A stretch of DNA of 64,000 nt, from IMG/VR virus record IMGVR_UViG_3300028805_000067, positions 71,256-135,255 of that record, one strand, 5' to 3'. The translations under genes and the position numbers were made by a program. The notes under the pieces were generated by a model that searched no databases, was not told where the DNA came from, and was given only the letters and a program-made list of their open reading frames with translations. Position 1 is the first letter of the stretch. The number at the start of each line of letters is the position of its first letter. The stretch is from a virus. Its lineage: Duplodnaviria > Caudoviricetes. Of this stretch, positions 1,175 through 63,999 are shown in pieces.

Positions 1175-1213
1175 TCGGCGCGGCGACGCAAAGTGCGGCT
1201 GTCGCCGCGCCGA
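1175..1213 (+). repeat. 39-bp GC-rich palindrome H1
   Basis: TCGGCGCGGCGAC-N13-GTCGCCGCGCCGA, 13-bp perfect stem. Confidence 0.85.
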
Positions 1214-1218
1214 CAAAC

Positions 1219-1242
1219 AAAAAAGGTGGCATCCGCCACCTT
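1219..1242 (-). terminator. intrinsic terminator
   Basis: AAGGTGGC-GGAT-GCCACCTT followed by a T-run on the minus strand. Confidence 0.75.
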
Positions 1243-1486
1243 AATCTTCAATTTCTGGATGAGATTCTAAAAAACTGTCTGTAATATCTTCTGAATAATC
1301 TTGTATATCGTTAAAGAAGTAATCATATGCTTCATCATCGGTACAATTTAGTATCATCTCTTGTATTGCTCCAAAAACATCATCATAATTTTTGAAAGGT
1401 AGTTTTTCATGTGCCGCCTCTAAAGCATCCAAAATATCTCCATCATCTGGTAAATTACAAGTTATAGTGCGTGTTAATGTTAGCAT
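1241..1486 (-). CDS. hypothetical acidic protein
   Basis: ORF with AAGGAGG RBS. Confidence 0.75.
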   Translation of the reverse strand: MLTLTRTITCNLPDDGDILDALEAAHEKLPFKNYDDVFGAIQEMILNCTDDEAYDYFFNDIQDYSEDITDSFLESHPEIED

Positions 1487-1501
1487 ATATGTACCTCCTT
1501 T

Positions 1502-1690
1502 TTATTTATCCCGAGAGCGGAATATTTCATCCCACTTTTTACGCTCTTCTTCTCTGCTTTTCTGAATAGCTTTAAGTATATTTAGAATGAATATCAGAGT
1601 TCCTTCAACAATAGAACATATTGCAAGAGGCACTCCCACATTAAAGCCACATAGATACAAAACACCAAATACAACTATTACAATATCCAT
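1502..1690 (-). CDS. small membrane protein
   Basis: Hydrophobic N-terminal two-thirds, charged tail, AAAGGAG RBS. Confidence 0.7.
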   Translation of the reverse strand: MDIVIVVFGVLYLCGFNVGVPLAICSIVEGTLIFILNILKAIQKSREEERKKWDEIFRSRDK

Positions 1691-1708
1691 TTTTATTATC
1701 GCTCCTTT

Positions 1709-1981
1709 CTATTTTACCCATTCACAATCACTATCTTTTAATATCTGTTTAACCTTATCAGCGACAAAAGATGTAGTATTCTGATCAAGATCTAATAAAT
1801 CTTTTTGACTTAATCTGTATGTGATAAGTTTACTTATTGAGCGTAAAGCAAGATATTCATAGTATTTTATTGAATACTTTTCTTCTTCTTCATTTGCATC
1901 CCACATCATATTTTCAACTGCATTTTTAATAACACTGTTAAAATTTTTATCAGGTACATCAATTGCAAGTGTAATTTTCAT
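1709..1981 (-). CDS. hypothetical protein
   Basis: ORF with AGGAGG RBS. Confidence 0.75.
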   Translation of the reverse strand: MKITLAIDVPDKNFNSVIKNAVENMMWDANEEEEKYSIKYYEYLALRSISKLITYRLSQKDLLDLDQNTTSFVADKVKQILKDSDCEWVK

Positions 1982-2031
1982 TTTTACCTCCTATGGCGGA
2001 GGCGCCTTATCAGCGCCCGCCGCCCCCTTTT

Positions 2032-2226
2032 TTATTCTATGTAATCATCATAAATTATTACAGATAAATCAACCTCGCCCCATATTTCATCAGGTACAGT
2101 CAATTTAGTACGCTCAATAATTATATCGGAATCAAATTCTCTTATTAGTTTTAATAAGCCATTAGTTTCCATTTCACGAACTTCTCTAAAAGCACTGTCG
2201 CTTGCTTTGGTGATATATACTTTCAT
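2032..2226 (-). CDS. hypothetical protein
   Basis: ORF with AGGAG RBS. Confidence 0.7.
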   Translation of the reverse strand: MKVYITKASDSAFREVREMETNGLLKLIREFDSDIIIERTKLTVPDEIWGEVDLSVIIYDDYIE

Positions 2227-2240
2227 TACTATATCATCTC

Positions 2241-2432
2241 CTATGCATTTTTAGTTATCTCAACATATTCTTTAAGTATTTTTACAAGTGCCGAGAAAAA
2301 TTCGTCCGCATCATCATTTTCAGAAGTTACAAACATGGCTTTAAGACCAGCCGCCGCCAAAACTTTACCAATGTCTTTATCAGCAGTTGCCAATATTTTA
2401 TTGAGTTCTTCATTTTTTACATAAGTTTTCAT
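2241..2432 (-). CDS. hypothetical protein
   Basis: Start moved to MKTYVK, which has an AGAGG RBS and lies below promoter 2472-2500. Confidence 0.7.
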   Translation of the reverse strand: MKTYVKNEELNKILATADKDIGKVLAAAGLKAMFVTSENDDADEFFSALVKILKEYVEITKNA

Positions 2433-2658
2433 TTTAGTTACCTCTTTTCTTTTTGTTTTTATTGTGCTTTTATTATAACACATTTTTTTGTTTTTGTCAA
2501 GACCTTTTTTATTTTCTTTAGGATTTTTTCACCGCCTTGACTTCGGTGCGCTTCCTTCATTTGATGGTTTAATTATAACAGATATTAGGCATTTTGTCAA
2601 TAGTTTTTTAATAAAAATTTGAAATATTTTTTTCTAACGATACTGCTTGTTGGATAAT

Positions 2659-2697
2659 GCGGAGCGCGGTCGGGGAACCCGAAGGCCCGCGCTCCGC
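2659..2697 (+). repeat. 39-bp GC-rich palindrome H2
   Basis: GCGGAGCGCGG-N17-CCGCGCTCCGC. Confidence 0.85.
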
Positions 2698-2724
2698 CAA
2701 AAAGAAAAGAGGGCATCCGCCCTC

Positions 2725-3027
2725 TTAATGTCCGAATCTGATATAGTGTTTTATCCAACTGTCACCAAAGTATTCTTTTAATTCTTGCTCGTACTGTGGA
2801 TAGTTTTGCAAAATTGATATCTTATAAATGGTATCATAGTCCATCATACAGTACCAACTATTATCGTCACCCTTGTAAAATCTTAATGTATCAAGAATGA
2901 AATTCATTGTTTCTTGCTTTAAATCAGCTTTAATACAATCCTCAAGGCTTACGAACTGACTATTAAAGATAGGTTTAATGTTAAAGTCTGTTACTTTTAC
3001 TCCACTCATTTTAGGTTCAAAATTCAT
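2725..3027 (-). CDS. hypothetical protein
   Basis: Start moved to MNFEPK with AAGGAGG RBS; terminator at about 2700-2726 follows. Confidence 0.7.
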   Translation of the reverse strand: MNFEPKMSGVKVTDFNIKPIFNSQFVSLEDCIKADLKQETMNFILDTLRFYKGDDNSWYCMMDYDTIYKISILQNYPQYEQELKEYFGDSWIKHYIRFGH

Positions 3028-3041
3028 TTTTATGTCCTCCT

Positions 3042-3212
3042 TTATTTGTAATATATTTCTGATGAAAAGTAATAGTTGTAAACTATAATCGCAACTTTTT
3101 CGATCTGCTTTACATATTTGCGCACTGTTATTGCGGATTCTTTGGGAATTACTCCCCATACTTCCAAATCATCAATATGTTCCATAAGGTCATCATACAT
3201 TTTTTCAGTCAT
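3042..3212 (-). CDS. hypothetical protein
   Basis: Start moved to MTEKMY with GGAGG RBS, overlapping the upstream stop. Confidence 0.65.
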   Translation of the reverse strand: MTEKMYDDLMEHIDDLEVWGVIPKESAITVRKYVKQIEKVAIIVYNYYFSSEIYYK

Positions 3213-3447
3213 CTTTTGTTCCCTCCTCCCAGAGTACATTATAAAGTCTACATAAGTCTGCCCATTCCCACTCGTCATCCGCAAACCATTCATAGTCCTC
3301 TTCTATTGCCTCATCAGGTATACCTAACTGAATCCAGTCGCTCCATATAAGCTCATCCCCGAGGTCTATGATACTCTCATTCATTTCCTTTGCAAGAGCA
3401 ATACGCTCATCTCTTGTTGTTTCATAAAAATCTCTTGTGTTTACCAT
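3205..3447 (-). CDS. hypothetical acidic protein
   Basis: AAGGAGG RBS; promoter 3479-3507. Confidence 0.75.
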   Translation of the reverse strand: MVNTRDFYETTRDERIALAKEMNESIIDLGDELIWSDWIQLGIPDEAIEEDYEWFADDEWEWADLCRLYNVLWEEGTKDD

Positions 3448-3563
3448 TGTTGGTACCTCCTTGTTTGTTTGTACCTAAAGTATATCATATTAGGACGGAT
3501 TTGTCAAGTAGTTTTTTGCATTTTTGAAAAAATATTTTTAGAGGGTGTTCTCTGTTAGACTTT

Positions 3564-3602
3564 GCGGAGGCTGTGCGCAAAAAGCCCACGCACAGCCTCC
3601 GC
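3564..3602 (+). repeat. 39-bp GC-rich palindrome H3
   Basis: GCGGAGGCTGTGCG-N11-CGCACAGCCTCCGC, 14-bp perfect stem. Confidence 0.85.
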
Positions 3603-4097
3603 TCATTTCGTGGAGGCTGTTAGTCTTTTGTAAAATGCTTGCACATTTATATTTAATTCTTGTTTAAATGTTTCAATCTTGTCTGGGTGCATCTTGTAAA
3701 ACCATATCGCCCAAGCGGTCGCCGCCTTTTCAAGTGGAAGATTAAAATATAATTTATTAGCTACATGATGCAATGGTTTTGGCAGCTTGTCAATTCCGAT
3801 TTTGCAAATCATATTCCACATGGTGTTAGTATCAGAAAAGTATTTGAAAGTTTTTAAATGTCCGATTTCATGCAGAATTGATAATATCATCAAATCAATT
3901 GTAGCTGGCTGAAAATCATATTTCCAATTCTTTTTTATAAATGAACAAAAGTCTTTGTCACATTTGTCACACTGTAAAGAGTAAGCGATTTGTTTGCGGT
4001 TTTTAGATACCCAAAAGTTTTGGTCAAGTGTTGCGGTTAAGGTTAAACCGCAACACTCTTTTATCATTTCGCTCATTTGTTTATTTAATATTTTCAT
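3603..4097 (-). CDS. putative zincin-like metallopeptidase (HExxH)
   Basis: ILHEIGH motif with a downstream E in LPLEKAATAWA. Confidence 0.55.
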   Translation of the reverse strand: MKILNKQMSEMIKECCGLTLTATLDQNFWVSKNRKQIAYSLQCDKCDKDFCSFIKKNWKYDFQPATIDLMILSILHEIGHLKTFKYFSDTNTMWNMICKIGIDKLPKPLHHVANKLYFNLPLEKAATAWAIWFYKMHPDKIETFKQELNINVQAFYKRLTASTK

Positions 4098-4306
4098 AAT
4101 TTTTTTAATACCTCATCAAGCCTTTCATCAAGGTAGGCATTGTTTACCATATAAAGTGCGGTTTTCAGTCCTTTTACTACACCCTTATAGTAGATTGCAT
4201 CCTCAGTTTCATCATTGTCGTCAGCATCCTTGCGATTCCATTGATAAATGTCTATCATCTGTCTCAGGGATGTCTCAATTTTTCGTGCCAGTTCTTCATT
4301 ACTCAT
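4094..4306 (-). CDS. hypothetical protein
   Basis: GGAGG RBS; promoter 4342-4370. Confidence 0.75.
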   Translation of the reverse strand: MSNEELARKIETSLRQMIDIYQWNRKDADDNDETEDAIYYKGVVKGLKTALYMVNNAYLDERLDEVLKKL

Positions 4307-4429
4307 TTTTTAATTCCTCCGTTTTTTTATTTTGTAATTAAAGTATAACACATTTTAGGATAAAAGTCAAGTATTTTTTTGAAAAAAATTAAAAATATTT
4401 TATTTAGAGGGCATAATATTAAAGTTAAT

Positions 4430-4468
4430 GCGGGTCGCTGCCGCGAAGAACTTGTGGCAGCGACCCGT
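4430..4468 (+). repeat. 39-bp GC-rich palindrome H4
   Basis: GCGGGTCGCTGCCGCGA..TTGTGGCAGCGACCCGT, three G-T pairs on the plus strand. Confidence 0.85.
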
Positions 4469-4496
4469 CCGAGCCACCGCCACAGTTTTGGAGGAT

Positions 4497-4814
4497 TTAT
4501 TCAAAATTATTTTCAAAAAGCCAATCTTCAATTACCTCGTCAGCAAGTGTTTCATAATCTACATTTTTCATGGCAAGCATTGCCCAGTTGTAAGCATCAG
4601 AACCAAGTCGATAATTAACACTGAATCCGATACTATCTTCACCAAGTGACTTTAGCATTTCGATTACATTTGTTTTGAGGGTTTTATCTTTATTCATCTG
4701 TAAGATTTCATCATCCTCGTAGAAAAAGGATAGTGAAAAATCTCCATATAAAAAATCTTCTTTAAACTTGTATGTTTCATAGTTTTTATATTTGCTATCA
4801 GGTCTATAATACAT
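4497..4814 (-). CDS. hypothetical protein
   Basis: Start moved to MYYRPD with AAGGAGG RBS. Confidence 0.7.
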   Translation of the reverse strand: MYYRPDSKYKNYETYKFKEDFLYGDFSLSFFYEDDEILQMNKDKTLKTNVIEMLKSLGEDSIGFSVNYRLGSDAYNWAMLAMKNVDYETLADEVIEDWLFENNFE

Positions 4815-4824
4815 ATTTGCCTCC

Positions 4825-5076
4825 TTAATGCGCCTCATAGGTTCTGTTTGATACTAAACCTGAGCCACAGTTCGTGACGAACCAACAATACTCATCAGTG
4901 CTCATAATCTCACCAGTTTCTGTATCAATTGCATCCACTATAGCGCTATACTCATAATAGTCTATATATGGCAATACAGAGTTCAGATAATGGATTACTG
5001 AATCCATATCATCAAAATCCTCACGCTCAAGAATGTAAAATCCTGTTGTGTCGCTTATTTCTACTGTGTATCTCAT
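4825..5076 (-). CDS. hypothetical protein
   Basis: Start moved to MRYTVE with GGAGG RBS; promoter 5108-5136. Confidence 0.7.
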   Translation of the reverse strand: MRYTVEISDTTGFYILEREDFDDMDSVIHYLNSVLPYIDYYEYSAIVDAIDTETGEIMSTDEYCWFVTNCGSGLVSNRTYEAH

Positions 5077-5205
5077 ATTGAGTACCTCCGTTTCATTTGA
5101 TAGCATAAGTATACTATATTTTAGGTAAAAAGTCAACATACAAAATGCACAAAGATTAGATTGAATGTTTGTGCACTTTTAACAAAAGAACAATGTGATT
5201 TGCCT

Positions 5206-5448
5206 TTATGAAATATCCAGATATATAGGCTCTAAATCGTGACAATCAGCAAATTCACTCGTTTCACCGTTGCCTTTATAGACTTTGAAATCTCTAATAA
5301 TATCACCATACTCTTCTATTTTACGCAGGCGACCACACACCCAAGATTTAAGATATGAATCTCTATACCGTTTATACGGCTTGCTGGTGCATACAATAAT
5401 GGTAAGATCCTCGGTGAAAACTACAAGGGTAAAAATCTGTTCGTTCAT
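5206..5448 (-). CDS. hypothetical protein
   Basis: MNEQIF start with GGAGG RBS; promoter 5508-5536. Confidence 0.7.
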   Translation of the reverse strand: MNEQIFTLVVFTEDLTIIVCTSKPYKRYRDSYLKSWVCGRLRKIEEYGDIIRDFKVYKGNGETSEFADCHDLEPIYLDIS

Positions 5449-5594
5449 AATAAAATCCTCCATAGGGTAAGTAGTGGTTTAAGGGTCTCTTCCTTAACTC
5501 TGGATACATTGTACCATATTTTAGGAAGAAAGTCAACATACAAAATGCACAAAATTGAATGGAATTTTTTATGCAATATATACAAATAGACAAT

Positions 5595-5633
5595 GCGGGC
5601 CGTCGACGCGAAAAACTTGTGACGACGGCCCGC
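5595..5633 (+). repeat. 39-bp GC-rich palindrome H5
   Basis: GCGGGCCGTCG-N17-CGACGGCCCGC. Confidence 0.85.
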
Positions 5634-5683
5634 CAAGACCGCCGTCCAAGTTTGGAGGATATTCTGTAATTTTAGTAAATTGA

Positions 5684-5730
5684 TTGGGAGCAAGGGAGTC
5701 GAACCCTACTACTGAGCCGTCAGCTCCCAA
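5684..5730 (-). ncRNA. tRNA-like minihelix 3' of ORF 5736-6056
   Basis: TTGGGAGC..AGGG-TTCGACT-CCCT-T-GCTCCCAA: acceptor-like stem plus T-arm and one short internal hairpin. Confidence 0.5.
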
Positions 5731-5735
5731 GTGGA

Positions 5736-6056
5736 CTAAAATGTCCACTCATCGAAAAGTAACTGGGCGATTTCTTCAAAATTTACATTATTTATTGCAA
5801 GCAATGCCCAACCATATACCTCTTTATAGAGTTTATAGTCTACATTAAATTTAAATGTTTCTACTACTGCATCTCTTAATTTCTCTGCTATATCTGCAAC
5901 CATAAACCCTTCTGCCATATTTTTTGAAACATCTTCGCAATACAGTTCAAATTCTTCATTTGGATCGTCATATACATTTTCAAGAGTTGCATCTGCGAAA
6001 AAATCTTTGTAGCATTCCCAAGTAGGATAATTTGAAAAACCATTAACTTTTGCCAT
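5736..6056 (-). CDS. conserved hypothetical phage protein
   Basis: N-terminal NGFSNYPTW resembles the YNGWxNYxTW motif of small phage early proteins; RBS and promoter present. Confidence 0.7.
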   Translation of the reverse strand: MAKVNGFSNYPTWECYKDFFADATLENVYDDPNEEFELYCEDVSKNMAEGFMVADIAEKLRDAVVETFKFNVDYKLYKEVYGWALLAINNVNFEEIAQLLFDEWTF

Positions 6057-6094
6057 TGTATTTACCTCTTTTCTTATTTTCTATAATGATTATA

Positions 6095-6301
6095 TCATAT
6101 TTTTTTGTTCTTGTCAATACCTTTTTTCATAATTTTTACACGCCTGCGGATGTTTCCGTTGTACCTGTGTGCTTCTACAATTGTATTAAGAACCTTTAAA
6201 TCATTGCATCTATTTGCAAAGTCTACAAACTGTGCGACTACATTATTGTAGCCATTGTAAATGTTGTACATTTCCTGAATGAGTTCCTGTTTATTCTTCA
6301 T
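6095..6301 (-). CDS. hypothetical protein
   Basis: GGAGG RBS; promoter 6333-6361. Confidence 0.7.
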   Translation of the reverse strand: MKNKQELIQEMYNIYNGYNNVVAQFVDFANRCNDLKVLNTIVEAHRYNGNIRRRVKIMKKGIDKNKKI

Positions 6302-6420
6302 TTTTTTGTCCTCCGTTCTTTATCTTGACTAAAATATACCATATTTTAGGTAAAAATACAATAGATAAAATGCACAAAAAATCAGCAAAAAATTTATACA
6401 ACCTGTCTATTGACAAAACA

Positions 6421-6459
6421 GCGGATGGCGCGCGACAGATGCTGCAGCCCGCCATCCGC
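6421..6459 (+). repeat. 39-bp GC-rich palindrome H6
   Basis: GCGGATGGCG-N19-CGCCATCCGC. Confidence 0.85.
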
Positions 6460-6485
6460 TCAATAAAAAAGAGTAGGCTTTTCGC

Positions 6486-6647
6486 CTACTCATATTCAAC
6501 AGTCCAATTGGTTGCGTAAATGTAATCATCAAATTCTTTTCTGTACTTGTACAGGTCGATTTTGTGTCCAAGTCTTGACCATTCAACTGCTTCCCTGTGG
6601 TTTGCAGTGAGTTTGTTTGTTACGGTGTCGTGATAGATAGTTTTCAT
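6486..6647 (-). CDS. hypothetical 53-aa protein (not in the ORF track)
   Basis: MKTIYHDTVTNKLTANHREAVEW...; AAGGAG RBS, promoter 6679-6707, terminator at about 6464-6491. Confidence 0.7.
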   Translation of the reverse strand: MKTIYHDTVTNKLTANHREAVEWSRLGHKIDLYKYRKEFDDYIYATNWTVEYE

Positions 6648-6684
6648 TGTTTAAATCTCCTTTGTTTTTTGTAATTTTATTATA

Positions 6685-6861
6685 TCATATGTCTTTTAAT
6701 TTGTCAACCATTTTATTTAATTCTTTCTGATATTTATAAGTTCTATTGCCTAAGCACCAATCGCATCCTCCGTGGTTTCTGCAAGTGCAATCAAAAGCCT
6801 TGCTACCCTTATATTGTTTGCGGTGTTCTTTTCCATACTCAATTGCTTTGTTCATGCTCAT
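6685..6861 (-). CDS. small Cys-rich (putative Zn-binding) phage protein
   Basis: DCTCRNHGGCDWCLGNR; AAGGAGG RBS. Confidence 0.7.
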   Translation of the reverse strand: MSMNKAIEYGKEHRKQYKGSKAFDCTCRNHGGCDWCLGNRTYKYQKELNKMVDKLKDI

Positions 6862-6939
6862 TTTTTTATCCTCCTTGTTCTTTTGTATCTTTATTATACC
6901 ATAGGGCTTGGCTTTTGTCAAGCCCTATTTTTAACTTTT

Positions 6940-7248
6940 TTAGCAATATGCCAAGTTCATTTTTCTCCATCCAAGAATTGAGATTTGGTTATGTTCTCTG
7001 CCTATTGCAAGTGCATCACATTTGCGTGTTACACGCTTACTCAGGTCGATATACCATATCCCGTCTGCGAACCAAATACCGCAGTTTCCACTATATGCTT
7101 TGATAGCTTTCATAGCCTCATGCATATCTTTTGTTTCAATACCCTCGGTAGCCACTTGCCAACCTGTCTTATAGGTTATAGGCTTGCCATTTTTAAGAGT
7201 TAAGCCGCCGTTGTTCTCAATTTTCTTAAGTGTTCTAATGTTTATCAT
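6940..7248 (-). CDS. hypothetical protein
   Basis: Start moved to MINIRT with GGAGG RBS; promoter 7279-7307. Confidence 0.7.
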   Translation of the reverse strand: MINIRTLKKIENNGGLTLKNGKPITYKTGWQVATEGIETKDMHEAMKAIKAYSGNCGIWFADGIWYIDLSKRVTRKCDALAIGREHNQISILGWRKMNLAYC

Positions 7249-7366
7249 ATCAGGTTCCTCCGTTCCTTTGATGATTAAAGTATACCACATTTCGGGTATT
7301 TTGTCAATGGGTAAAAATAAAAAAGTTGAAAAAATTTTGGCTGGATCAGCTCTCTTACTGGAACTT

Positions 7367-7405
7367 GCGGACTGCGCGCAGAGTTTGCGCCAGCGCGCAG
7401 TCCGC
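7367..7405 (+). repeat. 39-bp GC-rich palindrome H7
   Basis: GCGGACTGCGCGC-N13-GCGCGCAGTCCGC. Confidence 0.85.
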
Positions 7406-7443
7406 CAAAGAAAAAGACACTACTTTGCGTAGTGTCCTGTATT

Positions 7444-7626
7444 CTACTCGCCTGCGTAGTAGGCTGAACGGTAGCACTGAGGGTTCATTTCATTTTCAGT
7501 GTGAACAACCTCAAGTGCCCTGTCCTGAGTACTGTAAGCTCCATAGAACCAGTACTCGCCGTCACAGTAGGAAATTACCCACCAATCATACTCTCTTGCA
7601 TAGTCAGGAACATTGTTAATCTTCAT
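7444..7626 (-). CDS. hypothetical protein
   Basis: AGGAGG RBS; promoter 7659-7687. Confidence 0.7.
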   Translation of the reverse strand: MKINNVPDYAREYDWWVISYCDGEYWFYGAYSTQDRALEVVHTENEMNPQCYRSAYYAGE

Positions 7627-7694
7627 AATTAAGTCCTCCTCTTGTTTTTGTTGACTTTATTATAACATAATTGTTAAGGTTTGTCAAGCCTTTT

Positions 7695-7895
7695 TTAATA
7701 ATCTTTTCCGATTTCTACAACCATATCCCAAGCGATTTTTTCAAGTGAGAGATTGCATTTTTTTGCGTATCGTGTGACATCTGAATTAGCCTGCAGGCTT
7801 TTCATTACTTTGTTTAATGCGCTGTCCCAATTCTTTGCGGAAAATTCCTCGGGCAAGTCTACAAGATTGCGGTTGCGTGTAATTCTGTAATTCAT
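7695..7895 (-). CDS. hypothetical protein
   Basis: AGGAGG RBS; promoter 7926-7954. Confidence 0.7.
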   Translation of the reverse strand: MNYRITRNRNLVDLPEEFSAKNWDSALNKVMKSLQANSDVTRYAKKCNLSLEKIAWDMVVEIGKDY

Positions 7896-7968
7896 ATTTA
7901 AGCCTCCTGAACTTTTTGTAATTCTATTATATTACATTTTTGTAAATTTGTCAAGTGTTTTTTACATC

Positions 7969-8178
7969 TCATTCCGTTCCGTAAATATCCCACCAATTCT
8001 CCTCAGCTACAGGCTCAAGTCTAACATTTTTGCCTCTGCCCAAGCAATAGATATCTTCTTTTGTAGGTGCGTTGATAATTCTATCAACATCTGCCTGTGT
8101 ACCGTTTGCGTATACCATACAAGTTACGGTTACTCCATTGTTGAATGTGCAATCTGCAACGATCATGTACTTCTTCAT
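7969..8178 (-). CDS. hypothetical protein
   Basis: AGGAGG RBS; promoter 8224-8252. Confidence 0.7.
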   Translation of the reverse strand: MKKYMIVADCTFNNGVTVTCMVYANGTQADVDRIINAPTKEDIYCLGRGKNVRLEPVAEENWWDIYGTE

Positions 8179-8310
8179 AATTTAATCCTCCTAATTATTT
8201 GTTCTTTCCTTTTTTCTGATTAAAGTATATCATATTTTAGGATATTTGTCAATAGTTTTTTTCAAAAAAACTAAAAAAAGTTTTTTTAAACCTCCTCCCA
8301 GTAGAATAAC

Positions 8311-8349
8311 GCGGCTCAGTTGCCGCAAAAGCAAATGCAACTGAGCCGC
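8311..8349 (+). repeat. 39-bp GC-rich palindrome H8
   Basis: GCGGCTCAGTTGC-N13-GCAACTGAGCCGC. Confidence 0.85.
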
Positions 8350-8375
8350 CCGATTGTGACGGCTCAGTGAGTGGA

Positions 8376-8624
8376 CTAATATTCAATATCCTCGCAGAAT
8401 ACAACAGGCTCTCCGCTGAAGTACTTGTAACCAACAGAGTATTTTCTTTTTAGGATGCAAGCACCTGCCTCGTACCATGTTGCCTCTACATCATCAACAA
8501 TATTCTTGGTGTCTGCACCGAGCAGAAGTGCCTCAGCAGTGCGGTTTGCCTCTTCCCAAGTGGTCCAGAAAGTGGTCTTAACAGCGGTGTTAGTGGTTGT
8601 GTAGGTAAGCATAGTGTTCATCAT
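8376..8624 (-). CDS. hypothetical protein
   Basis: GGAGG RBS before MMNTML; promoter 8664-8692. Confidence 0.7.
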   Translation of the reverse strand: MMNTMLTYTTTNTAVKTTFWTTWEEANRTAEALLLGADTKNIVDDVEATWYEAGACILKRKYSVGYKYFSGEPVVFCEDIEY

Positions 8625-8740
8625 AATTGTTTCCTCCATTGTTCTTTCCTTTTTTCTGATTAAAGTATATCATAAATTGGATATTTTTGCAATAGTCAAA
8701 ATGTACAAAATTTTTAATATTTTTTGTGTACTCTGCACAA

Positions 8741-8947
8741 TCACTGCTTTACTACTGTGATAAGCCTGTTGTAAGTATCGGTAATAACAACCTTGTCATT
8801 TACAAATTTTTCAGCCATTTTGTTTGCGTAAGCATATGCCTGATCATAGTCATTAATCTGAGCTTCGCTAACTACTTTCCAGATGATACCGAAGAAGCCT
8901 TCGCCTTTGTTTCTCATAACCTTTACTTTGTAACCTGTTCCTGTCAT
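8741..8947 (-). CDS. hypothetical protein
   Basis: GGAGG RBS; promoter 8988-9016. Confidence 0.7.
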   Translation of the reverse strand: MTGTGYKVKVMRNKGEGFFGIIWKVVSEAQINDYDQAYAYANKMAEKFVNDKVVITDTYNRLITVVKQ

Positions 8948-9075
8948 ATTTTAATCCTCCGTTTCTTTCTTTCTTTATCTTGACTAAAGTATATCATATT
9001 TTGGGCGTTTTGTCAATAGTTTTGCGCAAAAAAACTTAAAAATTTTTATTTGGAAACATATATAATTAGAAAAAT

Positions 9076-9114
9076 GCGGTTCGGCTACGCAACGCACTGC
9101 CGCAGCCGAACCGC
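9076..9114 (+). repeat. 39-bp GC-rich palindrome H9
   Basis: GCGGTTCGGCT-N17-AGCCGAACCGC. Confidence 0.85.
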
Positions 9115-9206
9115 CCAATAAAAAAAGAGCCAAGTTAGTTTAACTTAGCTCTCTCATGTGATATTCATTTGTTTTACACCTCGTTTCTGAAAACCCCTGT
9201 TGCACC

Positions 9207-9249
9207 TTTTCAAAGCACCCGTAACTGTTTCAGCCAAGCGCCCCTACTT
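9207..9249 (-). ncRNA. structured RNA motif, copy 2
   Basis: See 882-924; lies between promoter 9281-9309 and terminator at about 9119-9152. Confidence 0.6.
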
Positions 9250-9324
9250 AGTGGCTGTTCTTTTCTCTTTTCTTGTCTTTATTATAGCACTCAATATCTA
9301 TTTTGTCAAGTGTTTTTTCACTTT

Positions 9325-9747
9325 TTAAAAAATAATTTTTGCGCCTTTTGTTTCAAGCCAGTAGCCTGCATGACCTGCTTTTATCCATGCATTGATATTT
9401 GCTTTTGTATCATCAATTAGCATCCCATCTTCTTTGATGTAATCTACTTTTTTACCACTACCAACTAAACAAATAAATTTATCACTTGTAATTTCAGGAA
9501 TGTATTTTGCAAGCCAATCAAGTTTGCCAAGTTTAGCATCTTCAGAAGCACAAGCAGTCAGGATGTAAACATTGTTGCCCTGAGCAATCAGCTTACGCAC
9601 AAGATTAACATTTTCTACAAAAGGCTCAAGGTTTGCAATCCATCTTCTCTGCATAACAAGATAACGCTTTGTAGCATCATAAGCCTTGTGGAAGTTAGCA
9701 AGAACACCGTCCATATCAAAATAGTAAGTGGCAATAGTAGTTCTCAT
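9325..9747 (-). CDS. HAD-family 5'(3')-deoxyribonucleotidase-like phosphatase
   Basis: FDMDGVLANF motif I, ILT motif II, K, and LIDD motif IV. Confidence 0.8.
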   Translation of the reverse strand: MRTTIATYYFDMDGVLANFHKAYDATKRYLVMQRRWIANLEPFVENVNLVRKLIAQGNNVYILTACASEDAKLGKLDWLAKYIPEITSDKFICLVGSGKKVDYIKEDGMLIDDTKANINAWIKAGHAGYWLETKGAKIIF

Positions 9748-9892
9748 AGTGACATCCTCCATCTCTTTATCTTGGCTTTATTATACCTCTGACTTGTGAA
9801 TTTGTCAAGTCTGTTTTGTATATTTTTTAAAAAAATTTTTATACAAAAACTGCTGCATAAAAATTTCTTGGAATGGATCAAGTAAAATAAAC

Positions 9893-9931
9893 TCGCTGCC
9901 TTTACGGCATATTCATTTGTAAAGGCAGCGA
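9893..9931 (+). repeat. 39-bp palindrome H10 (variant ends)
   Basis: TCGCTGCCTTTAC-N13-GTAAAGGCAGCGA. Confidence 0.65.
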
Positions 9932-10202: not shown

Positions 10203-11291
10203 ATGGCGAAATATAAATACCGTATATTAGATAAATCTTTAAAAACACCAGAAGAAAGAACTCAACTAGTTAACACTATATGCGAAGAAACCCCGCCTGA
10301 GTTCTTAACACCATATTACTGCACAACATTAGCAGATTATATATTAGAAGCATTACCTAAAAAAGAAAAATTATCCCACTATATCACCACTAAATACCGC
10401 CAAGTAACTCTTAACAAAAGAGAAACATCATATCAAGGCATGGCGGAAAAGCTTGAAGGCGGCGAAGATAGTATTTACAATTTAATTAGCGACTATGGCA
10501 AAGAACAATATCTTGATAATAAGGAAGATGAGCCCTTCCCTCAAGAACTACTAAACGAAAGTGCGGAGTTGCGGGTACTGCGCGAGGAAATAGACGATGT
10601 TTTACGACAACTTGCTACATCAACCGGCATGCGGCGTTCAGCCCTTCGCCGCCAACTCATAGAAATGCGGCAGCAGCAATACGACATCCGCGCTTCTTAC
10701 ATCAAACCCTACCGCACCACATCTATCACTCGTTCTTTTTCTCAATTGGATTTAAACGAAACTATTACAGTCAATGCGGATGGTAGTCTGACAACGAATG
10801 GATTATGTTCAATGCTGAATCCAAAACATGTCGCCGCAGTCCTTGCCAACTATGAAAGTTTACAACAACATTCATACGGCAAGTTTAACAGCGACAGCTG
10901 GTACTTCATGATGGACTTCACTAAACTCTTCGAGCAAGACTTTAAGGCGGCAAACCCTATGTATTACGATATCGCAAGGATGAAGATAGACGGCTGCAGC
11001 AACGCGGAAATCCGTACTATGCTTGACAACAAATACCATATAGTTCATTCAATTGAATACATTTCTACCCTTTGGACAAAGAAAATTCCTGCGGCGGTCG
11101 CTGCTCTGGCGGAGGAGCAATACATAGATTGGTACTTCACCTACAAGGTTAAAGGTAAATATAAAAAATGTAATAGATGTGGGCAAATTAAATTAGCTTT
11201 ACCTCGTTATTTTTCAAAGAATTCAAGTAGCAAAGATGGACTTTATTCCATTTGCAAAGATTGCAGAAACAATAAAGGAGGAGACAAATAA
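10203..11291 (+). CDS. putative DNA-binding/regulatory protein with C-terminal Zn ribbon
   Basis: HTH-like SNAEIRTMLDNKY..EYISTLW and CNRC..CKDC; first gene of the packaging operon. Confidence 0.55.
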   Translation: MAKYKYRILDKSLKTPEERTQLVNTICEETPPEFLTPYYCTTLADYILEALPKKEKLSHYITTKYRQVTLNKRETSYQGMAEKLEGGEDSIYNLISDYGKEQYLDNKEDEPFPQELLNESAELRVLREEIDDVLRQLATSTGMRRSALRRQLIEMRQQQYDIRASYIKPYRTTSITRSFSQLDLNETITVNADGSLTTNGLCSMLNPKHVAAVLANYESLQQHSYGKFNSDSWYFMMDFTKLFEQDFKAANPMYYDIARMKIDGCSNAEIRTMLDNKYHIVHSIEYISTLWTKKIPAAVAALAEEQYIDWYFTYKVKGKYKKCNRCGQIKLALPRYFSKNSSSKDGLYSICKDCRNNKGGDK

Positions 11292-63624: not shown

Positions 63625-63999
63625 TCACAATTCCATTGACTTACCAATTCCACTGCTCGTATTATAACCAGCATTAACGCTATTAAAAAGTTTAATATAA
63701 GTAGTTTCTTTCTCATTTAATTCTTCCTTTTTGCAACTGTCTAATAATTCAAAAGTAAAATTCCATATTCCATATTTTTGCATAGCATTATATAGTTTAT
63801 TTGATGCGGGAGTGTCTATTCCGCAGCCGCATTTACAATGTTCCTGCCAACGCTTGTTAACATCGACAGCCTGTCCCACATAACACTCGCCAGTAGGTAT
63901 ATAAGTAATTTTATAAATACCAGTAACAACTTTATCACCTAATACTTTGGATGATAATGTTTTAAGCGGTTTTTGTATATATGTTTGCCATAATAACAT
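63625..63999 (-). CDS. protein with C-terminal GIY-YIG nuclease domain (5' end probably outside the window)
   Basis: GIYKIT..CYVGQA..RW..H..E..GYN. Confidence 0.75.
   Translation of the reverse strand: MLLWQTYIQKPLKTLSSKVLGDKVVTGIYKITYIPTGECYVGQAVDVNKRWQEHCKCGCGIDTPASNKLYNAMQKYGIWNFTFELLDSCKKEELNEKETTYIKLFNSVNAGYNTSSGIGKSMEL

Follow-up and report, generated by a model that had tools for sequence, protein, structure and literature searches.

What do the GC-rich palindromes do that recur between the early genes of an uncultured rumen phage? The genome that carries them is that of a Firmicutes-type siphophage (135 kb, 32% GC, roughly 90% complete, tape measure of 2791 aa), of which the window is a 64,000-nt stretch. 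The first-pass annotation had described ten palindromes here and read them as a recognition site in single-stranded or cruciform DNA. The array is real and the observation is confirmed in part. The interpretation is also partly supported: the boundary role and the likeness to PeSL cassettes are right, but the central inference is not.

A palindrome array confined to the early region

Palindromes are present at 1175, 2659, 3564, 4430, 5595, 6421, 7367, 8311, 9076 and 9893. Their coordinates and common length of 39 nt hold, except that H6 reaches 41 nt through an extra A-T pair. As described, eight copies start with GCGG and seven of these end with CCGC; the exception, H4, ends with CCGT, which leaves a terminal G-T. 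The ends of H1 are TCGG and CCGA, and H10, with a GC content of only 46%, lies outside the GCGG type. The measured spacing (1484, 905, 866, 1165, 826, 946, 944, 765 and 817 bp) reproduces the reported range of 765-1165 bp with one 1484-bp gap, and the shorter GC hairpin noted near 1995 was found at 1995-2027.

The 18.5-kb early region holds 15 perfect, GC-rich stems of at least 10 bp, whereas 30 dinucleotide shuffles gave 0.03 on average and the remaining 116.8 kb of the genome has one. The array cannot be due to chance, and the hairpins are confined to the early region. It does not begin at 1175: at least five further copies lie upstream of the window (37, 37, 39 and 38 nt, with 48- and 52-nt forms as well). 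The features are listed below, with the strand where one applies.

1139-1167, plus: consensus sigma70-type promoter opposing the early genes; 12/12 hexamer matches, TG extension; its -10 ends 7-8 nt before H1
1175-1213: H1, GC-rich palindrome of 39 nt, class I (with counter-promoter); folds at -30.8 (plus) and -30.2 (minus) kcal/mol
1223-1242, minus: T1, primary sense terminator of block 1241-1981; U-tract abuts H1
1995-2035, plus: shorter GC hairpin with a T-run on the plus strand only; putative antisense-direction terminator within a sense operon (sequence reading and fold)
2659-2697: H2, class II (without counter-promoter); orthologue at L002 1548 keeps the pairing with a different stem
2707-2726, minus: T1 beside H2
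3564-3602: H3 (palindrome search, fold)
3592-3620: alternative hairpin using the 3' arm of H3 (third arm copy); T-rich tail flanks on the plus strand
4430-4468: H4, perfectly paired span of 37 plus terminal G-T; three pairs differ on both sides in the orthologue at L002 3438
5595-5633: H5 (palindrome search, fold)
5621-5646, minus: sense terminator overlapping H5 (terminator scan); its U-tract lies within the loop of the H5 palindrome
6421-6459: H6; compensated changes in the orthologue at L002 5146
6471-6491, minus: T1 beside H6
7367-7405: H7 (palindrome search, fold)
7414-7438, minus: T1 beside H7
8311-8349: H8 (palindrome search, fold)
8340-8368: alternative hairpin using the 3' arm of H8 (third arm copy)
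9076-9114: H9 (palindrome search, fold)
9123-9155, minus: T1 beside H9
9893-9931: H10, 39-nt palindrome richer in AT, heading the early region; best minus-strand U-tail, 7/8
2572-9808, minus: early promoters after the hairpins; -35 outer edges at 2600, 3507, 4370, 5536, 7307, 8252, 9016 and 9808

Pairing is conserved, with no strand bias

Stem sequences are unrelated between copies yet complementary, as first proposed. We found 96.4% of cells paired, a level reached in none of 500 shuffles, and both sides changed in 10 of 13 pairs. The suggested preference of wobble pairs for the plus strand was not recovered. Of the window copies, two (H4 and H5) give the better fold as plus strand and four (H3, H6, H8 and H9) as minus strand. 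Across the family, mismatches show no plus-strand bias (11 G-T versus 15 A-C), and the folds contain 14 versus 12 G-U pairs by strand (Wilcoxon p = 0.74). Only 2 of 221 cells are G-U. The scarcity of G-U cells together with the lack of strand bias fits an element that is required to fold when read in either direction.

Hairpins lie between terminators and early promoters

Separate U-tailed terminators (T1) adjoin H1, H2, H6, H7 and H9 on the minus strand, in agreement with the earlier description. Their U-tracts are 9-12 nt long and the hairpin starts at the end of the tract. On the other side, the -35 outer edge of the next early promoter is 57-60 bp away (H2, H3, H4, H5, H7, H8 and H9; 85 bp for H10), and 12 hairpin-promoter modules align without gaps. 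As had been claimed, early transcription units are bounded by the palindromes.

The statement that they are not the terminators was too strong. Among the 22 long hairpins of this phage and its closest relative (L002), 14 are followed by at least 5 U in the 8 nt past the stem on the mRNA strand, over a background of 10-16% (p = 2e-9 to 5e-7), compared with 1 of 22 on the plus strand. Six of the ten window copies have such a tail; it is poor in H1, H2, H3 and H7. With fold energies of -24 to -34 kcal/mol versus -13 to -17 kcal/mol for the T1 terminators, the hairpins are twice as stable.

Two classes of hairpin

A consensus promoter pointing backward, with the hairpin foot 7-9 nt downstream, is found at H1 and at four upstream copies, giving five such units in the phage. 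The coupling extends to the early regions of 80 relatives, where a GC hairpin follows 44 of 163 antisense consensus promoters (37 of the 44 begin 7-9 nt after the -10) and 13 of 514 sense promoters. At H2-H10, the promoter scan detected no plus promoter above chance-level matches. The L002 contig also has five counter-promoter units, all further left, which indicates that the split between distal copies with a promoter and proximal copies without one is conserved. In H2, H4, H6 and their orthologues, the plus promoter is absent from both phages and the stem is preserved through two-sided changes.

A plus-sense terminator within 130 nt ends 9 of 43 counter-promoter units, so the antisense RNAs appear to be a heterogeneous class. 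Terminators that work in the plus sense only are predicted within sense operons at 1995-2035 and 4027-4057, and suggest that antisense transcription may exist and be bounded. The hairpin at 1995-2035 and the gene at 2032-2226 are both missing from contigs of near relatives.

A proposed boundary element acting at the RNA level

With belief and doubt about evenly balanced, we favour the reading that the palindromes are RNA-level boundary stem-loops of PeSL-like terminator-promoter modules, serving as a second sense terminator and, where a counter-promoter exists, as an antisense 5' cap. On the minus (mRNA) strand, a unit would close with an ordinary terminator or with one overlapping the palindrome. 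Next would come the 39-nt GC-rich hairpin with its U-rich tail, an AT-rich upstream element of about 58 bp and the consensus early promoter. In the sense direction, the hairpin most likely provides a second, fail-safe terminator or an insulator. Since it is a palindrome, the opposite reading of the same DNA would yield the same hairpin. In the distal early region (H1 and the four upstream copies), the backward promoter would start transcription at the hairpin foot. The class I hairpin would then form the 5'-terminal stem-loop of a predicted antisense RNA entering the preceding unit, a geometry taken from the sequence. H2-H10 have no counter-promoter but keep the hairpin by compensatory change, hence the sense-direction role would cover most of the window.

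Several features fit a plain terminator poorly. The loops, 7-19 nt when counted by perfect pairing, are long for an intrinsic terminator. A strong T1 should let little sense RNA through to the hairpin, which counts against a fail-safe role. Face-to-face promoter pairs flanking a single hairpin (L035, L036, L049 and L056) are hard to reconcile with pure termination. The near-absence of G-U pairs is not explained by the boundary reading, and a plain terminator does not account for the fixed frame, the conserved loop letters or the lineage-typical lengths described next.

Conserved frame and alternative RNA roles

The 39-nt frame aligns without gaps in 17 copies from the two phages. C13, C22 and G27 are invariant, the 5' half of the loop is A-rich on the plus strand, with identical polarity in both classes, and the closing pair is C-G in 17/17 copies and G-C in none. 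In relatives the length differs, with 27 nt commonest (34 copies), followed by 25 and 29 nt (11 each) and then 36-37 nt; 39 nt is found only in this phage, L002 and one L014 copy. Total length is typical of the lineage, and stem and loop trade off within it.

Such regularities would be expected if a phage or host protein reads a hairpin of fixed frame and loop letters on one RNA strand, so that frame length (27 or 39 nt) co-evolves with the factor. It could serve as a boxB/nut-like antitermination loading site for backward transcripts, a processing site or a 3'-end protection site. The gap-free frame, the invariant letters with the A-rich loop half, the constant closing pair and the trade-off at lineage-typical length all agree with this, as do loop letter families that recur on the promoter strand in relatives (ending CCAT or containing GGAAC, for example) and the position of class I hairpins directly 3' of a promoter, like nut and put sites. 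However, we identified no candidate protein, the stems are much longer than boxB, no boxA-like element was seen, and class II has no promoter on the loop-conserved strand. The proposed inner helix (positions 14-15 with 21-22) is only 56% paired, no better than shuffles. Shared descent of the module may explain the invariant letters. The 39-nt length is most simply a lineage trait retained by descent, and its fixed total could reflect selection against indels in the palindrome, with the total constant while the stem/loop partition varies. A dedicated factor is an unlikely explanation, albeit one to be taken seriously.

In another reading, which is rather unlikely, the plus-strand RNA is the main product and all copies, including H2-H10, work inside backward transcripts; these would be short and stable, or else long antisense RNAs reading through from the distal counter-promoters. 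The hairpins would be 5' caps, internal stabilisers or antiterminators that prevent bidirectional terminators from ending the antisense RNA, and early genes would be shut down through collision or duplex formation. Such a role is supported by how tightly consensus counter-promoters are coupled to the foot of the hairpin, and by the A-rich loop polarity shared by both classes. In the plus-sense terminator form at H3, H4, H5 and H8, the descending arm would be tied up by the outer arm, and the sense form could still fold first. Repression by a synthetic unidirectional terminator with an antisense promoter (PMC4731013) offers a precedent. Against this, plus promoters at H2-H10 are at chance level, RNA begun at the H1 promoter should end short of H2 at the plus-strand terminator (1995-2035), a nearby plus-sense terminator in only 9 of 43 units makes the class heterogeneous, and the plus-strand wobble preference was not found.

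Relatives argue against a DNA-level site

According to the first-pass annotation, hairpins extruded from single-stranded or supercoiled DNA are recombinase, nickase or primase sites, with a role in exchanging cassettes or as periodic signals on the first-injected DNA. Perfect Watson-Crick palindromes with few G-T pairs and no strand bias, conserved GCGG/CCGC ends and a frame fixed within the lineage would suit this proposal, and homology stops twice at the promoter-side hairpin edge (window 5598 and L002 4364, in paralogous/orthologous comparisons). Two findings that the annotation itself had named as contrary were made: hairpin length is not constant among relatives, and breakpoints do not coincide with the hairpins. 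In the comparison of this phage with L002, homology carries on across H2, H4 and H6, and its blocks stop in promoter/5'UTR repeats or at gene ends. What moves is the single promoter-gene module, not a block bounded by hairpins. Indels in near-relative contigs are likewise flanked by promoter repeats, as in a 485-nt insert between copies of 7256-7290. A search of the genome, roughly 90% complete, for a co-occurring enzyme revealed no gene for a Tyr recombinase, a Ser recombinase or a Y1 HUH protein. Cruciforms do not readily extrude around spacers as long as 7-19 nt. The flanks are polar, the plus strand being T-rich before and A-rich after the hairpin, with counter-promoters on one side only. 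We regard a DNA-level site for shuffling, nicking or priming as improbable.

That H2-H10 are decaying counter-promoter modules without present function is very improbable: RGA letters 4-8 nt before class II hairpins match the class I promoter start region and the -10 and -35 elements are gone, but 96% of the stem is paired, two-sided changes in orthologues postdate promoter loss in both phages, and GC-rich stems endure in a 32% GC genome.

Comparison with known systems

The RNA-level boundary element we favour shares features with several systems. Integron attC sites and REP/RAYT elements are also imperfectly conserved palindromes at gene boundaries, and attC sites keep structure while sequence varies. 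Unlike these, the phage has no detected integrase or RAYT gene. There is no core-site consensus and no extrahelical base as in attC, the cassettes carry their own promoters, and the copies lack the near-identity of REPs.

Lambda OOP and P22 sar are short convergent antisense RNAs of phages. In a synthetic part that combines a unidirectional terminator with a constitutive antisense promoter, repression is proportional to promoter strength (PMC4731013). H1 and the other class I units resemble these in that a unit would have at its 3' end a constitutive promoter that fires back into the unit across a sense-only terminator. They differ in occurring at many unit ends instead of one and in the sequence-variable GC hairpin at the start of the predicted RNA; 9 of the 10 window copies have no such promoter.

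Tandem intrinsic terminators close strongly transcribed units. The likeness lies in two successive mRNA-strand hairpins, both with a U-rich stretch behind them, ahead of the next promoter. Here, however, the second hairpin has twice the stability of the first, its loops are long, its U-tract is often imperfect, and it is a Watson-Crick-only palindrome with conserved loop letters.

The PeSL (promoter-early stem-loop) cassettes of T4-type phages (PMC2839356, PMC4122927), to which the first-pass annotation already pointed, come closest among known systems. In contrast to them, this phage is a siphovirus with Firmicutes-type signals and no sequence relation, in half of the copies its stem-loop is an extra one behind a distinct canonical terminator, the frame is fixed at 39 nt, and many copies are coupled to a backward consensus promoter, with which PeSLs have not been described. 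Both combine an intergenic, GC-ended stem-loop with an AT-rich stretch and a near-consensus sigma70 promoter, both are repeated among small non-essential early genes in a plastic region, and in both the exchanges between relatives fall in the promoter, AT-rich or 5'UTR part.

The early region and its relatives

The virus contig, from sheep or bovine gut, is a single sequence of 135,255 bp (~32% GC), and the window covers its right-hand 64 kb. From position 10203 on, the plus strand encodes a sigma factor, a terminase, a portal protein and a 2791-aa tape measure protein; the phage is therefore a large siphovirus. In the early region, small minus-strand genes follow one another, nearly every one or two of them with a consensus promoter of the sigma70/sigma-A type; sixteen minus-strand sites match the consensus at 11 or 12 of 12 positions. 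Among isolates, large Enterococcus phages come closest; the palindromes described below are absent from Enterococcus phage EF1, which is of this type, and no DNA similarity was found between the early region and known phages. A protein search with the sigma factor returned nearest relatives at 97%, 61% and 58% identity. Through this neighbouring gene, which is present in at least 478 contigs of the viral collection, 80 related loci were reached; a search of viral contigs with the single protein gave no match, an alignment-based search did.

The sigma-factor-like gene (10203-11291) heads the structural operon and has more than 1700 metagenome homologues. Its C-terminal, cysteine-rich part shows weak matches to HNH and Lar-like families. 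The early region has, at its extreme left and past the last plus-strand gene, an AT-rich palindrome that is likewise 39 nt long (genome 63629-63667; 7130-7168 of L001, the locus of the studied phage). The same edge carries five direct repeats (L001 7385-7480, genome ~63,885-63,980) with a unit of ~15 nt, a T-run followed by ATCTGAGAG, which look like iterons or a terminal feature. tRNA-like T-arm motifs occur in non-coding early-strand stretches at L001 14420-14960 (up to window position 205) and window 5634-5735. ARAGORN detects no tRNA genes, and these stretches give only a weak Rfam tRNA-Sec match (E = 0.09).

The palindromes are under selection for structure

The ten palindromes reported in the first-pass annotation (H1-H10, at 1175, 2659, 3564, 4430, 5595, 6421, 7367, 8311, 9076 and 9893) are real and under selection for structure. 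All are 39 nt long; eight start with GCGG and seven of these end with CCGC. The array extends beyond the window: four copies, of 37, 37, 39 and 38 nt, lie upstream of it, together with two longer forms. The early region contains 15 GC-rich perfect stems of at least 10 bp, against a mean of 0.03 in dinucleotide shuffles, and there is one in the other 116.8 kb of the genome. We aligned 17 copies from the phage and its closest relative, L002, without gaps. Standard pairs fill 96.4% of the stem cells and 10 of the 13 pairs have changed on both sides; none of 500 shuffles comes close. The alignment bears out the earlier observation that the stems are unrelated in sequence and remain complementary.

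G-U pairs are nearly absent (2 of 221 stem cells). The proposed wobble preference for folding of the plus strand was found neither in the window nor in the family; wobble and folding-energy comparisons of the two strands were both negative. The closing pair C13-G27 is C-G in 17/17 copies and loop position C22 is invariant in the same alignment. Read on the plus strand, the loop is rich in A over its 5' half, with or without an adjacent backward promoter. Stems of 10-16 bp and loops of 7-19 nt (by perfect pairing) trade off at constant total length. Folding adds a few inner loop pairs in some copies; an inner helix within the loop receives no support from the pairing test.

Descent together with counter-selection of indels can explain the fixed total length. 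The fixed frame, the C13, C22 and G27 letters, the A-rich loop and the scarcity of G-U pairs fit an element that is required to fold whichever way it is read, and a specific binding factor would be compatible with them too. No Rfam family matches the palindromes at gathering or relaxed thresholds. The best match, at half its cut-off, is the model of an 88-nt S. pyogenes sRNA, spanning H7 and T1, the ordinary sense terminator beside a palindrome.

Palindromes sit between terminators and promoters

Twelve modules can be aligned without gaps. On the mRNA (minus) strand, the palindrome begins at the end of a terminator U-tract, and after it an AT-rich stretch of 57-60 bp leads to the -35 element of the next consensus promoter (7 copies; 11-12 of 12 promoter matches). 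Canonical terminators separate from the palindromes, as noted in the first pass, are present beside H1, H2, H6, H7 and H9. At the other unit ends, a terminator-like hairpin shares an arm with the palindrome and takes the palindrome loop as its U-tract; this form was called by the scan at H5, is indicated by third arm copies at H3 and H8, and was recognized by eye at H4.

At least five U residues in the 8 nt past the palindrome are found on the mRNA strand in 14 of 22 copies from the phage and L002, against a background of 10-16%, and on the plus strand in 1 of 22. The palindromes thus have the polarity of sense terminators, with U-rich tails in 6 of the 10 window copies and poor ones in the other four. 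Intrinsic terminators have loops of 3-8 nt, whereas the palindrome loops span 7-19 nt by perfect pairing.

Backward promoters divide the palindromes into two classes

At H1 and four copies upstream of the window, a consensus plus-strand promoter facing against the early genes precedes the palindrome by 7-8 nt (class I). At H2-H10 (class II), plus-strand promoters do not rise above chance level. The arrangement recurs in the early regions of the 80 related loci, where a GC hairpin follows 44 of 163 antisense consensus promoters. In 37 of these 44 the hairpin starts 7-9 nt past the -10 element, and the predicted backward transcript would therefore start at the hairpin foot. Of 514 sense promoters, 13 have a GC hairpin after them, and for most of these 13 an antisense promoter lies opposite, on the far side of that hairpin. 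A plus-sense terminator lies within 130 nt downstream in 9 of 43 promoter-hairpin units; most of the others meet one at 285-1136 nt or none. Two terminators in the window, each a hairpin with a T-run after it on the plus strand only, suggest from their sequence that backward transcription exists and is bounded:

1995-2035, plus strand, plus-sense-only terminator inside a minus-strand operon or gene
4027-4057, plus strand, plus-sense-only terminator inside a minus-strand operon or gene

RNA contigs from one sheep-gut metatranscriptome (a single unstranded study with possible DNA carry-over) cover parts of the early region. One contig has its end at 8313, where the outer foot of H8 lies, and others break off to the left or right of the 1995-2024 hairpin; neither these ends nor the uncovered parts carry any inference.

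In L035, L036, L049 (705-800, 2286-2380 and 3149-3250) and L056, one 23-27-nt GC hairpin stands alone between face-to-face consensus promoters, which would place both transcript starts inside one palindrome. The promoter-coupled 25-27-nt hairpins of L010, L012, L018, L049, L055, L056, L067 and L070 show recurring families of loop letters on the promoter strand, with a CCAT ending in ~10 of 43 and an internal GGAAC or GGAGC in ~9 of 43. Operator-like inverted repeats with the half-site TTGCACAAA and a spacer of ~14 nt occur at window 5142-5179, L001 14292-14325 and L001 12462-12495. They adjoin early promoters with a weak -35 and sit upstream of backward promoters. A compact form of this repeat is found in L002, 8-9 nt before several hairpins, at the expected place of the -10 element.

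The sigma factor of L002 is 64% identical to that of the phage. Nine promoter-less GCGG-type hairpins lie beside its sigma gene and five promoter-coupled hairpins of 36-37 nt farther away; the exact promoter-plus-CGG pattern has no match in the L002 contig, and the five were found by reading the remainder. The predicted split into two classes is thus conserved between the phages. H2, H4 and H6 have orthologues in L002, inside blocks of ~70% identity. Both members of each orthologue pair are without a backward promoter, and yet base pairs have changed in both arms and remained complementary (three base pairs in H4 alone). The hairpin therefore has a function independent of the backward promoter.

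Gene exchange does not break at the palindromes

It was proposed that the palindromes are structure-specific DNA sites for cassette shuffling. Homologous genes have been relocated singly among hairpin-bounded intervals (for example 6095-6301 and 7695-7895), and the suggested inspection of breakpoints showed indels and replacements bounded by modules. The crossovers themselves fall in the promoter, AT-rich or 5'UTR part. Homology blocks between the phage and L002 pass through the hairpins; their limits lie in repeats of the promoter or 5'UTR, or coincide with gene ends. In two gut metagenome runs, near relatives have an additional cassette of 485 nt, with the 35-bp promoter stretch 7256-7290 present once on each side of it. 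Near-relative contigs are also without 1985-2242, and their matches break at 8230 and 8645, two copies of one promoter-leader sequence. This indel and crossover evidence comes from one close relative (L002) and near-relative contigs.

Hairpin length varies as well: it peaks at 27 nt in the relatives, followed by 25, 29 and 36-37 nt, and among those measured the 39-nt form is confined to the studied phage, L002 and a single case in L014. The absence of a recombinase or HUH gene noted for the window extends to the ~90% complete genome, which has no tyrosine or serine recombinase (no match to PF00589, the IntI-type family) and no Y1 transposase (no match to PF01797). With variable lengths, breaks at promoter and 5'UTR repeats and no recombinase, the shuffling-site proposal is not supported.

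Proposed boundary stem-loops of terminator-promoter modules

The palindromes are best read as the boundary stem-loops of terminator-promoter modules resembling PeSL cassettes. We infer the mechanism: most likely, the palindromes would act as fail-safe sense terminators, and distal copies would also form the 5' stem-loops of predicted backward RNAs. A bolder proposal, which we regard as improbable, is that a dedicated factor reads the fixed-size hairpins as a directional valve that stops sense RNA polymerase and loads or passes backward transcription at every early-unit boundary. The objects read would be frames of 39 nt here and of 27 nt in other lineages, whose stems are purely Watson-Crick and which have the invariant letters C13, C22 and G27. 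Phages would then possess a timing device of a new kind, whose molecular ruler is specific to the lineage.

Among the uncultured siphophages of gut and rumen, a large clade has its host-takeover region organised by one repeated junction unit. If the terminator-promoter unit works as proposed, it would be a natural, compact insulation of very strong promoters from each other, backward transcription would tune or shut down early genes, and single genes could be swapped with their neighbours undisturbed. New from this window is that compensatory evolution keeps the hairpin even without a backward promoter, so the hairpin has a role of its own.

Comparison with known systems

PeSL cassettes combine a stem-loop that ends transcription in reporter assays (PMC2839356) with crossovers located either in the AT-rich part or downstream of the -10 element, before the start codon (PMC2839356, PMC4122927). 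The phage modules likewise place a stem-loop, an AT-rich stretch and a sigma70-like promoter between small early genes, and the breakpoints of the phage and its relatives follow the same pattern. PeSLs are known from T4-type myoviruses, whereas this genome is of the siphovirus type and its modules are unrelated in sequence to described PeSLs. The modules are an analogue, not a homologue, of PeSL.

Cis-antisense RNAs of the OOP/sar type start from a convergent promoter that lies where the target unit has its 3' end. Such a promoter is present at H1 and the four upstream copies and absent at H2-H10. OOP/sar RNAs are discrete and short, with their own terminator, which is predicted within 130 nt in the minority of units counted above. 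The nut/boxB elements are short conserved hairpins with GNRA-like loops that follow a promoter and go together with boxA and an N-like protein; here only class I occupies this position, stems are long, loops are A-rich, and no boxA was seen. Integron attC sites flank promoterless single-gene cassettes and have core sites with extrahelical bases, whereas the hairpin-bounded intervals hold 1-4 consensus promoters apiece and the stems are fully Watson-Crick with GCGG/CCGC ends; with no core sites and no IntI-type recombinase, attC was rejected. REP/RAYT systems require near-identical copies and a Y1 HUH protein, and here the stems are unrelated and the PF01797 search was empty. N4-type hairpin promoters, which a virion RNA polymerase recognizes, have a 5-7-bp stem and a 3-nt loop, in contrast to stems of 10-16 bp and loops of at least 7 nt here, and the sole giant ORF is the tape measure protein. 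CRISPR-repeat mimics were dismissed because the stems all differ, and the lack of conservation in the arms spoke against operators bound by a dimeric regulator. T5-type injection-stop or nick sites were weighed too and not adopted.

For the PeSL-like boundary modules, a further parallel comes from synthetic biology, where a unidirectional terminator has been combined with an antisense promoter in a single part (PMC4731013). By analogy, the distal modules may be its natural counterpart.
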